NCBI GenBank assembly: GCA_037137465.1
Contig: JBAXKF010000002.1
Span: 12,075-76,074, forward strand
Direction: 5' to 3'
DNA length: 64,000 bases
Origin: Betaproteobacteria bacterium
Lineage (GTDB): Bacteria > Pseudomonadota > Gammaproteobacteria > Burkholderiales > Burkholderiaceae
Position 1 is the first letter of the stretch; every line of letters starts with the position of its first letter. This document shows, piece after piece, positions 32,399 through 37,833 of this stretch. Below the pieces are notes generated by a model. That model had not been told where the DNA came from, made no database searches, and saw nothing but the letters and a program-made list of their open reading frames with translations. The position numbers were made by a program, and so were the translations under genes.

Positions 32399-32767
32399 TC
32401 ATAATTCCCTGAAATCTTTACGTTCTTTACGTATTTTGGCCTTTATTTTTAATTCCGTATCTTTATTCTGATTCGCTTTTTTACGTCTTATTTTTTTAGG
32501 ATCAATCAAAATAGGACGGTATAACTCAATCCGATCACCGTCATAAATTGTGTCATCCGGACCCAAAACAATGCTAAATACCCCAATACTGCCCTTTTTT
32601 AGGAAAATTGGGTCATCTTTACTAGTTACTATTTGCAAGTGCAATAAGGCCTCAAATACTGTCGGAGCGCTTATGGATGGGAGTGAAAGGGTAAAAAAGG
32701 TCTGTACGGGTGGATCAATTCGACCATCAAACAATTCAAGTTGAATATGTTTTATGTCATTCCCCAT
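32399..32767 (-). CDS. ratB: RnfH/RatB ubiquitin-like protein
   Basis: GVF......D..I.DGDRIELYRP..IDPK..RR; follows ratA. Confidence 0.82.
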   Translation of the reverse strand: MGNDIKHIQLELFDGRIDPPVQTFFTLSLPSISAPTVFEALLHLQIVTSKDDPIFLKKGSIGVFSIVLGPDDTIYDGDRIELYRPILIDPKKIRRKKANQNKDTELKIKAKIRKERKDFREL

Positions 32768-33191
32768 AAAGATCGTTCGCTCTTTTCACAAAACTGTTGA
32801 CGAACGTATTAGCAATTACGCTAAAGACAGGTCCGATGAGTTTATCAAGTATGAAATTTGAAAACTCATAATGTAGGGAAAACTCAATTTTGCAGGCTTC
32901 ATCCGACAACGGTGTGAAAATCCAATGACCTTCAAACTTTTTAAAAGGTCCTGATACAAAGGTCATATCAATGTTGGTAGGCGACTTTTGAATATTTTTA
33001 GTATGAAAATATTGCTTAACACCCTTAAAATTGATGTTTATCTTGGCTTCCATTAAGTCTGGTGTTGATTGAAAAACCTCAACTCCCCCACACCAGGGTA
33101 AAAATTCAGGGTATTTTTCTACGTCAGTAACTAAGTCAAACATTCGCTGCGCAGGATGTGTTATCAGTAGGGATTTGTGTACGTCTGCCAT
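32757..33191 (-). CDS. ratA: RatA/PasT (Coq10-like START-fold) protein
   Basis: MFDLVTDVEKYPEFLPWC, GPFK...G.W.F; divergent from smpB. Confidence 0.93.
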   Translation of the reverse strand: MADVHKSLLITHPAQRMFDLVTDVEKYPEFLPWCGGVEVFQSTPDLMEAKININFKGVKQYFHTKNIQKSPTNIDMTFVSGPFKKFEGHWIFTPLSDEACKIEFSLHYEFSNFILDKLIGPVFSVIANTFVNSFVKRANDLYGE

Positions 33192-33273: not shown

Positions 33274-33723
33274 ATGAGCATTGTTGAAAATAAAAAAGCA
33301 TTTTTTGATTACTTTATCGAAGACCGTATCGAGGCGGGGCTCGTTCTTGAGGGGTGGGAAGTCAAAGCGATTCGGGCTGGTAGAGGCAATATTAAGGAAG
33401 CTTATGTTGTGATTCGGCAAGCAGAGCTTTATCTCATTGGTTGTCATATCAGCCCTTTGCCGGCAGCATCTACACATATCAACCCAGATCCTACAAGAAC
33501 ACGCAAGTTACTAATGCATTCTGAGCAAATCAATAAATGGATTGGAAAAGCTGAACAAAAAGGCTATACCCTCGTGCCCTTGAACCTGCATTATGCAAAA
33601 GGTCGCATTAAGTGCGAGATTGGTTTAGCTAAAGGGAAAAAGCAATTTGATAAACGAGAAACCGAGAAGGAAAGAGATTGGGTTCGGGAAAAAGCACAAA
33701 TTAGCCGAGGAAAATACGGTTAA
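33274..33723 (+). CDS. smpB: SsrA-binding protein
   Basis: [35 protein letters not shown]. Confidence 0.97.
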
Positions 33724-33729
33724 TTAAAC

Positions 33730-33746
33730 TGCACCATAGCAGTGCA
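33730..33746. promoter_or_regulatory. NtrC-like binding site upstream of the Anbu operon
   Basis: TGCACCATAGCAGTGCA versus consensus TGCACCA-N3-TGGTGCA (12/14 specified positions). Confidence 0.65.
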
Positions 33747-33805
33747 TATTTGTCTAAAAAGGTTCTTACAAGCATTGATTCGTAACAAGAAAGGGTTATC
33801 TTGTA

Positions 33806-35221
33806 ATGATGACAAAACCTTACGATGAAATGTTCGATGAGCAAGGGCAAGCTCGAGCACATTACCGAGAATTTAATGATTGGCTCTCTCGCCAAAGCGA
33901 TAGTCATATCGCTTATAAGCGGGCCGAAGCTGAATTAATCTTCCGTCGTATTGGAATTACTTTTGCTGTATATGGTGATGAAAAAGGGACTGAACGTACA
34001 ATTCCTTTTGATCAAGTTCCACGAATTATTCCGGCAAAAGAATGGATGGTTCTGGAAGATGGTTTAAAACAACGCGTTAAAGCGCTGAATATGTTTTTGC
34101 ATGATATTTATCATGATGAAAAAATTCTCAAAGCAGGACTGATTCCTAAAGAGCAAATATTTAATAATTTGCAATATCGCCCTGAAATGCGATTTGTAGA
34201 TGTTCCTAGAAATATTTATGCTCATATCGCTGGCATTGATATTATCCGTGCAGGAGCTGGTGAGTATTATGTTTTAGAAGATAATTTACGTGTACCCTCC
34301 GGCGTATCTTATATGGTAGAAAATCGCAAAATGATGATGCGGTTATTCCCAGACTTATTTGAGAAACATCGAATCGCCCCCGTTGAGCACTATCCAGATT
34401 TGTTGTTACAGTGTTTAAAAACAGCAGTTCATTCTTCTGCTAAAAAACTTAATGTCGTCGTTTTAACTCCCGGGATGTTTAATTCCGCATACTTCGAACA
34501 CTCTTATCTGGCTCAGCAAATGGGTGTAGAACTTGTAGAGGGCAAGGATTTATTTGTCAAAAATGAACAAGTATTTATGCGAACTACCCAGGGCCCTCAA
34601 GTAGTGGATGTTATTTATCGGCGTATTGATGATGATTTTCTTGATCCTTTAGCTCTTCGTCCAGATTCAACGCTAGGTATTCCTGGCATATTGAATGCTT
34701 ATCGAGCAGGTAATGTTGGAATTTCTAATGCTATTGGAACTGGTATTGCGGATGACAAGTCTATTTATCCCTATGTACCCGATATGATTAAGTTTTATTT
34801 GAACGAAAAACCAATCTTACAAAATGTTCCCACTTTTCAGTGTCGCAAAAAAGAGGATTTGCAATATACTCTGGCGCACTTAAACGAGTTGGTCGTCAAA
34901 GAAACTCATGGTGCTGGAGGGTACGGGATGTTAATAGGTCCCTTAGCTACAGTTGCTGAGTTAGATAATTTTAGAAAGTATTTAATTGATCATCCAGATA
35001 AGTACATTGCTCAACCAACCCTTGCCTTATCAACTTGCCCTACTTTTGTTGAAGCAGGCATTGCACCAAGACATATTGATTTACGCCCTCTTGTTCTTTC
35101 AGGCAAGCAAATTACGATGGTTCAAGGAGGTCTAACTCGAGTCGCTTTAAAAGAAGGCTCTTTAGTCGTGAACTCTTCACAAGGTGGTGGCACTAAAGAT
35201 ACTTGGGTATTGGAGTCTTAA
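33806..35221 (+). CDS. Circularly permuted ATP-grasp type 2 protein
   Basis: GITFAVYG...ERTIPFD, VLEDNLRVPSGVSY, VIYRRIDD, N..GTGIADDK, VNSSQGGGTKDTWV. Confidence 0.93.
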   Translation: MMTKPYDEMFDEQGQARAHYREFNDWLSRQSDSHIAYKRAEAELIFRRIGITFAVYGDEKGTERTIPFDQVPRIIPAKEWMVLEDGLKQRVKALNMFLHDIYHDEKILKAGLIPKEQIFNNLQYRPEMRFVDVPRNIYAHIAGIDIIRAGAGEYYVLEDNLRVPSGVSYMVENRKMMMRLFPDLFEKHRIAPVEHYPDLLLQCLKTAVHSSAKKLNVVVLTPGMFNSAYFEHSYLAQQMGVELVEGKDLFVKNEQVFMRTTQGPQVVDVIYRRIDDDFLDPLALRPDSTLGIPGILNAYRAGNVGISNAIGTGIADDKSIYPYVPDMIKFYLNEKPILQNVPTFQCRKKEDLQYTLAHLNELVVKETHGAGGYGMLIGPLATVAELDNFRKYLIDHPDKYIAQPTLALSTCPTFVEAGIAPRHIDLRPLVLSGKQITMVQGGLTRVALKEGSLVVNSSQGGGTKDTWVLES

Positions 35222-36201
35222 TGCTGAGTAGAACCGCTGACTGCCTCTATTGGATGGCTCGTTATACAGAGCGTGCTGAGAATACTGCTCGCATGTTAGA
35301 TGTTGCTTACCAAACTTCTTTAATGCCTCAACCTAACGATTTTATGCAAGAAAGTTGGCGTAAGCTTTTGAATGTTTCTCTTTTAGAAAAACTATTTGAA
35401 AGTAAATATGTGGAGTACAACAGAGAAAACATACTTCAATTTATGATTTTTGATGATGATAATCCTTCTAGTATTGTTTGTTGTTTCAATGCGGCTCGTG
35501 TCAATGCAAGGATTATTAGGGGAAAAATCCCCTCTGAAGTTTGGGAAACACAAAATTTAAATTGGCTTAATATAAATAAGTTTCTTCCAGAAAGCCCATC
35601 CCATGATCCCTCGGCTTTTTTTGAGTGGGTAAAGTATCGTTGTCATTTATTCAGAGGTGTTGTTTTTGGAACCATGCTATCTAATGAAGCCCTACACTTT
35701 ATGGAGTTCGGAACCTATCTTGAGCGGGCTGATAATACGGCAAGAATCCTAAAAGCGAAATATCGCTCTTCGAATGATCAACATCAACAACAAATTAACC
35801 AAGCCAGTCTTTTTAAAATCGAAAATACGTCTGAAACTTTTGATTTTTATCATTGGGTATCCTTGTTAAGATCCGTATCTGCTTTTGAGATCTTCCGTCA
35901 AACCTATTCTGACCAAATTACCCCTGAGCGAATAGTTGACTTATTGGTTTTTAATAATCAACTTCCAAGGTCACTTACCAAATGTGTTGATCAACTCCTT
36001 TTGTTAATTACGTTATTAAAAAATAATAAGTCTAAAGAGATCGAAAGATTAATTGGTAAATTAAAGTCTGAGCTTGATTACTCAACAATTGATGACATTC
36101 ACAAGGATGGCTTGGATCAATTTATCCAACGGTTTTTAGAAAAAATTAATCATATTGCTGATGAGTTTAGTAGTATTTATTTAATCCCTTTGTCGGCTTA
36201 A
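35221..36201 (+). CDS. Alpha-E domain protein
   Basis: MLSRTAD.LYWMARYTERAEN and a second LERADNTAR repeat; TAATG coupling to the upstream gene. Confidence 0.93.
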   Translation: MLSRTADCLYWMARYTERAENTARMLDVAYQTSLMPQPNDFMQESWRKLLNVSLLEKLFESKYVEYNRENILQFMIFDDDNPSSIVCCFNAARVNARIIRGKIPSEVWETQNLNWLNINKFLPESPSHDPSAFFEWVKYRCHLFRGVVFGTMLSNEALHFMEFGTYLERADNTARILKAKYRSSNDQHQQQINQASLFKIENTSETFDFYHWVSLLRSVSAFEIFRQTYSDQITPERIVDLLVFNNQLPRSLTKCVDQLLLLITLLKNNKSKEIERLIGKLKSELDYSTIDDIHKDGLDQFIQRFLEKINHIADEFSSIYLIPLSA

Positions 36202-36205
36202 TCAT

Positions 36206-37000
36206 ATGAGATTAAAAATTACGCACCGTACTGAATACCTTTATGAACGCTTTGTTCATCATTCCATCCAAGAACTTCGCTTAACGCCACAAGATACTAA
36301 CAATCAACTCTTGGATCATTGGAAAATAACTGCCCCTAGTAAGATGACGGAATCAATCGATGCTTTTGGGAATGTGTGCCATGTTTTTGTTTTAGATAAT
36401 AACTATTCTGGAATGCTCATTGAAGCTCGCGGTGAAGTCTTTACAAAAGACCAGTATGTTTTTTCTGATCCTAAAGACGCGGTTTCACCGCTTTGCTTAT
36501 TACAACAAACCACGCTTACTGAACCGTCAGCTGAGATGATCCATAATTTTTCTACCTATATAGATAAGGATTTGACACCAGAGGATATGTTGAAAATAGG
36601 TATTCAAATTCAAAATGTAATTTCCTACGAGCAAGGTGCAACGAATACAAAAACCACAGCCGCAGATGCCTGGGAATTAAAAAAAGGTGTTTGCCAAGAT
36701 CAAGCCCACGTAATGTTAGGTCTATGTCGTTACTTGAAAATTCCTGCGAGATATGTAAGTGGCTTTTTTTATGCGGAAAATATGCCAAACCTCGCAAGTC
36801 ATGCCTGGGTAGATGTTTGTTTAGACTCTGATAATGCTATTTGGCATAGTATTGATATCACCAACGGCTGTTTCAGTAATGAGCATCATATTCGTTTAGC
36901 TATCGGCCGTGACTATGCTCACGTAGCTCCAGTCAAGGGAATTCGTTCTGGTGGTGGTGCTGAGGAGTTAATTACAAAAATCACTATAGAAAAGTGTTAA
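36206..37000 (+). CDS. Transglutaminase-like protein
   Basis: Triad GVCQD.AH (Cys), SHAW (His), DITN (Asp); GRDY...PV.G. Confidence 0.92.
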   Translation: MRLKITHRTEYLYERFVHHSIQELRLTPQDTNNQLLDHWKITAPSKMTESIDAFGNVCHVFVLDNNYSGMLIEARGEVFTKDQYVFSDPKDAVSPLCLLQQTTLTEPSAEMIHNFSTYIDKDLTPEDMLKIGIQIQNVISYEQGATNTKTTAADAWELKKGVCQDQAHVMLGLCRYLKIPARYVSGFFYAENMPNLASHAWVDVCLDSDNAIWHSIDITNGCFSNEHHIRLAIGRDYAHVAPVKGIRSGGGAEELITKITIEKC

Positions 37001-37032: not shown

Positions 37033-37833
37033 ATGACTTACTGTGTTGCTATTTGTTTAAAAGAAGGCCTTGTTTTTCTTTCCGATACCCGAACCAATGC
37101 TGGTGTGGATGATATTGGTACCTTTCGTAAAATGACCATTTATCAAGAAGGTCATGATCGTATTTTCACCTTATTAAGCGCCGGAAATCTAGCAATTACT
37201 CAATCTGTTAAAGAAATGCTGAGTCATGACATGACTTTTGAGGGTGTCAACCTTTGGAACGCAATGAGTACCTATGATGCTGCTGTAGTTGTAGGAATGG
37301 CTATTCGAAAAGTTAAAGAACGGGATGAAAAAGCCCTTGCTAATGCGGGTATTGAATTTAATTGTAGTTTTATTTTTGGTGGCCAAGTGGCTGGTGAGAA
37401 GCCTCGTTTATTCAATATTTACTCTGCAGGGAATTTTGTAGAGTCAACCCTTGAGACGTGCTACTTTCAGATAGGTGAGGCTAAATACGGCAAACCTATT
37501 CTAGATCGGGTCATTAATTACAATACTTCTCTTGATTTGGCAACGAAATCTGCTTTGATCTCGATGGACTCGACTTTGAAAAGTAATATCTCAGTTGGTC
37601 TGCCGCTTGATCTATTTGTGTACACAATCAATTCTTTTACTAAAGATAAAGCAATAACAATCGATGAGGCTAATCCTTATTTTGCAATGATTCGTAACCT
37701 TTGGGGTCAAAAATTAACTGAAATCGTGATGTCGATTCAAGAACCAAATTGGGACAACAACCCTGAGTTATTGCCTATTGTGACCGCCCCTCAACGACTA
37801 GGCCCAATTCCTTTGGTAAAGAATGAGGCCTAA
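37033..37833 (+). CDS. anbu: Anbu proteasome-type Ntn protease
   Basis: MTYCV (Thr1 nucleophile), SDTRTNAGVD, AGNLA.TQ, QIGE.KYGKPILDR, DSTLKSNISVG.P. Confidence 0.9.
   Translation: MTYCVAICLKEGLVFLSDTRTNAGVDDIGTFRKMTIYQEGHDRIFTLLSAGNLAITQSVKEMLSHDMTFEGVNLWNAMSTYDAAVVVGMAIRKVKERDEKALANAGIEFNCSFIFGGQVAGEKPRLFNIYSAGNFVESTLETCYFQIGEAKYGKPILDRVINYNTSLDLATKSALISMDSTLKSNISVGLPLDLFVYTINSFTKDKAITIDEANPYFAMIRNLWGQKLTEIVMSIQEPNWDNNPELLPIVTAPQRLGPIPLVKNEA

Follow-up and report, generated by a model that had tools for sequence, protein, structure and literature searches.

A predicted NtrC operator upstream of the Anbu operon in a Polynucleobacter-related genome with no detectable rpoN

Introduction

Since 2008, the sole physiological clue to the function of Anbu, a proteasome beta-like peptidase, has been its induction by nitrogen limitation in Pseudomonas. 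The 64,000-nucleotide stretch of DNA analysed here (the window) carries an Anbu operon preceded by a 17-bp palindrome that resembles the binding sites of the nitrogen regulator NtrC. This arrangement raises two questions: whether the palindrome is a genuine NtrC site, and how such a site could act on the operon in an organism for which we detected no gene for sigma-54.

Results

An NtrC-type dyad in the spacer before the Anbu operon

The genes for a circularly permuted ATP-grasp protein, an Alpha-E protein, a transglutaminase-like protein and the Anbu peptidase lie consecutively in the window, as judged by Pfam and structure matches, and therefore constitute an Anbu operon (Table 1). The Anbu protein matches the solved Anbu structures with E values of 1e-62 to 1e-77, including 1e-77 for 5loy and 1e-75 for 5nyw. 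The first methionine of the proteins of relatives aligns with residue 2 of the ATP-grasp open reading frame, and the second ATG, at 33809, is the probable start shared with the orthologues. Genes for a RatA-like protein (Polyketide_cyc) and RnfH (32399-33191, minus strand) are arranged divergently upstream of smpB; they look ordinary and have no apparent link to the operon.

Table 1. Features of the Anbu locus, in window coordinates.
Feature	Coordinates	Strand	Basis or remark
smpB, upstream neighbour	33274-33723	+	Pfam SmpB, E 2e-56; context, outside the regulated unit
Predicted NtrC-type dyad operator, TGCAC-CATAGCA-GTGCA	33730-33746	.	Sequence, rarity, matrix rank, conservation in the genus
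Weak candidate -35 hexamer, TTGATT	33775-33780	+	16 nt upstream of TATCTT
Candidate sigma-70 -10 hexamer, TATCTT	33797-33802	+	Chosen by eye; 6 nt before the second ATG (33809)
Circularly permuted ATP-grasp gene, first in the Anbu operon	33806-35221	+	Pfam CP_ATPgrasp_2, E 2e-160
Alpha-E domain gene	35203-36201	+	Pfam PF04168, E 1e-91
Transglutaminase-like gene	36206-37000	+	Pfam Bact_transglu_N and Transglut_core
Anbu (proteasome beta-like peptidase) gene	37033-37833	+	Solved Anbu structures 5loy, 5nyw, 5nyj, 5lox

The palindrome, read directly from the sequence, is TGCACCATAGCAGTGCA. It agrees with TGCACCA-N3-TGGTGCA at 12 of 14 specified positions and with the core arms TGCAC/GTGCA at all 10, and on this basis we count it as a match to the NtrC operator pattern TGCACC-N5-GGTGCA. 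Within the 82-nt spacer between smpB and the ATP-grasp ATG (33806), the dyad begins 6 nt after the smpB stop codon and ends 59 nt before the ATG, which places its center approximately 70 bp upstream of the start codon of the operon. The original prediction had described a 17-bp dyad with these same counts of matching positions, distance and spacer length, and all of them were correct when the sequence was re-read.

The spacer also contains short repeats, namely CTTACAAG at 33766-33773, GTAACAAG at 33782-33789 and an inverted CTTGTAA at 33800-33806 that overlaps the start codon. None of these is conserved in G004, one of the closest relatives.

Rarity of the dyad and its companions in the genome

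A match of this quality had been called unlikely by chance, and this claim fails when judged within the window but holds across the genome. At least one match to the NtrC consensus with two or fewer mismatches arises in 23 of 100 dinucleotide shuffles of the window, and the window-level match is thus insignificant. The genome that contains the window (G000) is a 2.44-Mb draft of 113 contigs that is 98.7% complete, and its closest relatives carry the name Polynucleobacter. Only two perfect TGCAC-N7-GTGCA sites exist in these 2.44 Mb, and both are intergenic. One is the Anbu site, and the other (C9:45470) precedes glnA by 82 nt, with ntrB and ntrC coming after glnA.

A weight matrix trained exclusively on sites of the relatives was then used to score every 17-mer in the genome. 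The top three matches, all intergenic, are the glnA site (21.3 bits), the Anbu site (20.7 bits) and a site at C32:475 (17.9 bits) located upstream of genes for a TorF-type porin, glnK and amtB. The motif is accordingly present at canonical Ntr targets of the same genome (glnA-ntrBC and porin-glnK-amtB). Both members of the NtrB/NtrC pair, whose presence had been proposed as a check, are encoded in G000: NtrC scores 591 bits against the TIGR01818 equivalog model (cut-off 558.6) and NtrB scores 299.5 bits against NF008293 (cut-off 240). The ntrC gene resides outside the window (G000:C9:48140-49636; L001:1492-2988).

These data also bear on the identity of the protein that would read the dyad. 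Palindromes of this type are in principle readable by other helix-turn-helix proteins, and the site might be the operator of a different dimeric regulator that shares targets with the nitrogen regulon. We regard this as highly improbable, given that the motif is the enteric NtrC consensus, that the NtrC of this genome fits the full-length equivalog model including its C-terminal DNA-binding part, and that the set of sites (glnA-ntrBC, glnK-amtB and amt) is that of a textbook NtrC regulon.

The NtrC box at glnA has a peculiarity of its own. In both G000 (C9:45465-45500) and G004 (L139:1990-2030) it is embedded in a longer perfect palindrome of 12-14 bp followed by a run of T residues, with the sequences AAAGATGCAC...GTGCATCTTT in G000 and CCAGAATGCACC...GGTGCATTCTGG in G004. 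Because the flanks of this palindrome covary between the two genomes, the glnA box may double as a terminator of the upstream gene.

Conservation of the dyad among Polynucleobacter Anbu loci

Phylogenetic footprinting, another check proposed with the original prediction, was carried out on 22 Polynucleobacter Anbu loci. By tblastn, smpB is located just upstream in 19 of them, and the short contig of G011 ends within the 3′ end of smpB. All 22 orthologous spacers contain the TGCAC-N7-GTGCA dyad, allowing at most a few changes in the arms, and in 20 of the 22 loci its end is separated from the ATG by 59-65 nt. The dyad of G021 has one mismatch and lies 63 nt from the ATG, and that of G020 is a weaker match at 41 nt. 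With the spacers aligned by the dyad, the mean information per column is 1.89 bits in the arms, 0.71 in the N7 segment and 0.58 in the flanks, although the value for the arms is partly forced by the anchoring pattern. The real evidence for conservation is that no spacer is without a match and that its distance to the ATG hardly varies, rather than the information content of the arms.

Two of these loci, in G004 and G015, have no smpB gene within 1.5 kb, yet carry the dyad 61 and 65 nt from the ATG, respectively. The element therefore goes with the Anbu operon rather than with smpB. In G015 (L029), AAAGAGCATGAATGGAAAGTTTGAAATAGGCGG, found approximately 80-140 nt upstream of the ATP-grasp ATG, resembles a decayed 3′ end of smpB, with no intact smpB nearby, which suggests a rearrangement that preserved the Anbu promoter.

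The proximity of the dyad to smpB in the window raises the alternative that it is mainly the hairpin of an intrinsic terminator for that gene, or a chance palindrome, and that it resembles an NtrC box by coincidence. An interrupted T-run (TATTTGT) follows the dyad, the site was listed by a terminator scan, the shuffles give a 23% chance of such a match in a window of this kind, and the glnA palindromes of G000 and G004 illustrate that NtrC boxes can double as terminators. However, the 5-bp stem is weak (-6.5 kcal/mol, with a z-score of -0.05 in a 50-nt context), and the stem preferred in folding differs from the dyad arms. The dyad lies approximately 40-70 nt past the smpB stop codon in the main-clade species examined, and its distance to the Anbu ATG is kept even where the distance to smpB varies or smpB is absent. 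Moreover, the arms are fixed as TGCAC/GTGCA with no covariation, and the same sequence marks glnA and amtB. No Rfam family matches the spacer at E values up to 1. With a weak hairpin and a dyad that tracks the Anbu gene rather than smpB, we set aside a terminator as the main role of the dyad, and this alternative as a whole, chance included, has very little probability left; formation of a small hairpin after smpB is possible as a minor dual role.

A broader search likewise associates the motif with nitrogen genes. Each of 14 related genomes contains 2-4 perfect sites, versus 0-3 for a reversed-pattern control, and the total across the 15 genomes searched is 46 versus 8 for the control. In nine of the 11 relatives with Anbu, a perfect site precedes the operon by approximately 64 nt; the remaining two (G021 and G029) have a site with one mismatch instead. 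The other perfect sites that were checked in relatives are mostly upstream of glnA or an ammonium transporter gene, often as a tandem of a full site and a half-site, and a few precede a 72-amino-acid orphan open reading frame or unrelated genes. Taken together, these comparisons indicate that the palindrome at 33730-33746 is very probably a real NtrC binding site.

The 72-amino-acid open reading frame is conserved in two main-clade species, G033 and G002 (L122:2001-2387, L124:2001-2387), and has no family match. In both it is preceded, approximately 150 nt upstream, by a perfect NtrC box with extra half-sites. A tblastn search of G000 revealed no homologue.

Anbu spacers of relatives (for example L013, L017 and L022) also carry a conserved GCACCAAGCYGC block 5 nt downstream of the dyad, or 22 nt from it when measured start to start, which corresponds to about two helical turns. 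This block, absent from the spacer in the window and from that of G004, is probably a second NtrC half-site. We considered and rejected it as a sigma-54 promoter of the main-clade relatives: it often reads AGCAC, and the spacing from GG to GC is one base short.

An NtrC protein in a genome without detectable sigma-54

The presence of rpoN was a further check suggested by the original prediction, and here the outcome was negative. No rpoN gene was detected in the G000 draft with TIGR02395, with PF04552 (Sigma54_DBD, at E values up to 1) or by tblastn with the RpoN protein of G004, and its absence from this 113-contig, 98.7%-complete assembly is very likely real. We considered whether the gene might be concealed by an assembly gap and rejected this explanation: in G004, rpoN sits among genes that have no close homologue anywhere in G000, which is consistent with an accessory island that is absent from G000.

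The sole real Sigma54_activat domain in the genome is that of NtrC (216.8 bits), with all other matches being weak (31 bits or less). Walker A, Walker B and the receiver aspartate of this protein are intact. Its sigma-54-contacting loop reads GAFANA and aligns residue for residue with the GAFTGA loop of Aquifex NtrC1 (4l4u, 1ny5), so that the length of the loop is kept, two residues are substituted and the intact GAFTGA motif is missing. The closest relatives, G004 and G034, have the same GAFANA loop and are rpoN-positive.

The DNA near the operon likewise lacks the corresponding promoter. The best candidate for a -24/-12 element (TGGCAC-N5-TTGC) in 33701-33815 has 6 matches at the 10 specified positions and does not have correctly spaced GG and GC dinucleotides, which bears out the earlier statement that no canonical sigma-54 promoter follows the dyad. 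Three hallmarks of a classical sigma-54 enhancer, namely rpoN, a -24/-12 promoter and an intact GAFTGA loop, were thus sought for the Anbu site and not found, and for these reasons we exclude the classical sigma-54 enhancer mechanism. The accompanying caveat, that control might run through sigma-70 or by repression, is reinforced by the missing rpoN and the degenerate loop.

Candidates for sigma-70 promoter elements are weak. The -35 hexamer in Table 1 falls under the promoter-scan threshold (9 of 12). In the divergent lineages that we inspected by eye (G000, G004, the main clade, G011, G015 and G020), a TAnnnT sequence precedes the orthologous ATG by 5-8 nt, with the variants TATCTT (G000 and G004), TAGTTT (main clade), TACCGT (G011) and TATGTT (G015). 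If these weak hexamers chosen by eye are the true -10 elements, then the mRNA of the Anbu operon would be leaderless and the dyad would be centered near position -71, an arrangement that we consider possible but rather doubtful.

Loop state, rpoN and the glnA promoter across the genus

The rpoN gene is missing from 25 of 41 genomes, nine of which are single-contig assemblies. A canonical GAFTGA loop is limited to five species, all of them rpoN-positive (G006, G007, G011, G036 and G062). All 16 of the rpoN-negative species examined have a GAFPGA, GAFSGA, GAFLGA or GAFANA loop, and nine rpoN-positive species likewise have a non-canonical loop. Outside the closest, Polynucleobacter-like group, GAFTGA is present in 54 of 55 NtrC loci.

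Promoters of glnA follow the same division. Four of the five GAFTGA species (G006, G007, G036 and G062) have a conserved sigma-54 promoter, TTGGCATGCTTTGTGCAT, located 72-82 nt before the glnA ATG, and none was found at glnA in the fifth (G011). No sigma-54 promoter was found at glnA in the GAFxGA species examined. Main-clade species have two NtrC boxes at glnA, the proximal one overlapping GTGCAATAAT, and G000 and G004 have a single box. This correspondence between loop state and promoter type provides the best in silico indication that sigma-54 no longer mediates the action of these NtrC proteins.

On balance, we lean toward the interpretation that NtrC of Polynucleobacter became sigma-54-independent by point substitutions in GAFTGA, not by deletion, that the genus preserves the whole transition, and that the resulting regulon comprises three to four operons including Anbu. 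The stages of this putative transition would be represented by species with GAFTGA, rpoN and a sigma-54 promoter at glnA, by species with GAFxGA and rpoN that lack this promoter, and by species with GAFxGA in which rpoN is lost. The GAFANA clade that includes G000 occupies a very long branch in the NtrC tree, and the topology of this tree suggests that the shift by loop substitution may have happened more than once.

Activation or repression at a probable sigma-54-independent promoter

A genuine NtrC site could also be used by NtrC solely as a repressor or roadblock that occludes the Anbu promoter or stops read-through from smpB. In classical systems, proteins with a degenerate GAFTGA loop bind DNA and have lost activation, hence pure repression is possible for an NtrC whose loop is GAFANA in a genome with no detected rpoN. 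The short distance of the dyad from the start codon would suit this mode of action, and the proximal glnA box of GAFxGA species overlaps an extended -10-like sequence in a manner that resembles E. coli glnAp1, which is repressed by NtrC. Furthermore, Caulobacter NtrC represses several sigma-70 promoters (PMC10274813).

Several observations nevertheless favor activation and make a purely repressive role unlikely. Upstream of glnA and glnK-amtB, whose expression has to increase when nitrogen is limiting and NtrC is phosphorylated, there is the same box. The amt promoters of the main-clade relatives combine a box with a half-site and a good -10 hexamer (CATAAT) and have no -35 element, which is the usual appearance of an activator-dependent promoter. 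The intact Walker motifs and receiver aspartate of NtrC also speak against a protein reduced to repression. In addition, expression of the P. putida Anbu operon increases, and does not decrease, under nitrogen limitation (PMC7801951, PMC8050072). Finally, R. capsulatus and Caulobacter have NtrC proteins that lack GAFTGA and activate transcription from sigma-70 promoters (PMC10274813).

The mechanism that we propose would begin with the phosphorylation of NtrC by NtrB upon nitrogen limitation. A dimer or oligomer of NtrC would then bind the dyad and stimulate sigma-70 RNA polymerase at the weak promoter formed by TATCTT and a poor -35 element, and the transcript might be leaderless, with its start at the second ATG.

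Direct membership of the Anbu operon in the NtrC regulon, the central claim of the original prediction, is supported by the dyads of all 22 promoters, by the presence of ntrBC and by the motif at glnA and glnK-amtB. We therefore consider it likely that 33730-33746 is the operator of the single NtrC protein of this organism, that it serves a sigma-54-independent promoter, probably by activation, and that the operon belongs to a very small nitrogen regulon. The regulon predicted jointly with this operator, at the same level of confidence, consists of glnA-ntrBC, porin-glnK-amtB and the operon for the ATP-grasp, Alpha-E, transglutaminase and Anbu proteins.

Anbu promoters outside the genus

All 11 of the other Burkholderiales genomes with Anbu that we tested contain rpoN. 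Among five outgroup Anbu loci, a good -24/-12 element precedes the ATG by 53 nt at two (TGGCACAACCGTTGCA and TGGTACGCGGATTGCT), and TTGA variants occur at another two. Roughly 60-70 nt further upstream, two of the five have an NtrC-like dyad. On the strength of these elements and dyads, control of Anbu by NtrC and sigma-54 is probably older than Polynucleobacter.

We also entertained the notion that such control is universal. In a class-wide sample of 29 Anbu loci, a comparable dyad is found at two and a -24/-12-like element at six, with none in coding controls, and these low frequencies rule out universality. Control of Anbu by NtrC, as predicted from these sequences, is lineage-specific, or other motifs are used elsewhere.

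Discussion

That Anbu is connected with nitrogen control is not itself new, as this has been published for P. putida. In this organism, the operon PP_2685-PP_2688 of strain KT2440, which has the same ATP-grasp, Alpha-E, transglutaminase and Anbu genes, is strongly induced by nitrogen limitation, is grouped with urtABCD as NtrBC-controlled and is assigned to NtrBC (PMC5666114, PMC6376114, PMC7801951, PMC8050072). The evidence in those papers consists of expression data from an organism that bears sigma-54, whereas the evidence presented here comes from comparative genomics, which defines an operator in an organism with no detectable rpoN. In the papers that we searched, we found no description of an operator for the P. 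putida Anbu operon.

The dyad consensus, the regulator family and the core targets (glnA-ntrBC and glnK-amtB) are shared with the NtrC enhancers of enteric glnAp2 (TGCACCA-N3-TGGTGCA). Those enhancers stimulate a -24/-12 promoter from a distance by means of the GAFTGA loop. In contrast, the system described here has a single site approximately 70 bp from the likely start, no -24/-12 element, a GAFANA loop and no rpoN that we could find.

A closer mechanistic parallel is provided by the sigma-54-independent NtrC proteins of Rhodobacter capsulatus and Caulobacter crescentus, where an NtrB/NtrC pair regulates the sigma-70 promoters of glnA and amt-type genes in the absence of a functional GAFTGA motif (PMC10274813). 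The L1 loop is deleted in those proteins, whereas the loop of the Polynucleobacter proteins is kept and substituted (GAFPGA, GAFQGA, GAFSGA, GAFLGA or GAFANA). Unlike the alphaproteobacterial case, Polynucleobacter also includes GAFTGA species with sigma-54 promoters at glnA, and rpoN is missing in many of its members. By analogy, NtrC of Polynucleobacter may work in the same way as the R. capsulatus and Caulobacter type as the result of a different lesion.

A case from the same order is the I35_5080-83 cluster of B. cenocepacia H111, which encodes transglutaminase-like domains and is 6-9-fold down in an ntrC mutant under nitrogen limitation (PMC5491218). This Burkholderiales cluster differs in being sigma-54-dependent, and it may represent a paralogous large-protein form and not the Anbu operon.

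Within the literature searched, the explicit conserved operator, the very small regulon and the sigma-54-free context appear to be new. We found no paper in this literature that relevantly pairs Polynucleobacter with NtrC or rpoN, and the sigma-54-free setting of NtrC across much of this genus appears not to have been described.

In this streamlined bacterium with a genome of about 2 Mb, the predicted regulon is reduced to glutamine synthetase, the ammonium transporter and the Anbu operon. That a regulon shrunken to three targets would still include Anbu argues that this operon is central to coping with nitrogen shortage and is not a peripheral passenger. A nitrogen storage or tagging role, as raised in the original prediction, is speculative. 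If our interpretation is correct, Anbu would be a core nitrogen-starvation function in genome-streamlined freshwater bacteria. Polynucleobacter offers a small and culturable model genus for the role of Anbu, as well as a natural series in which to follow the shift of an enhancer-binding protein from sigma-54 to sigma-70 promoters and the loss of rpoN that can ensue.
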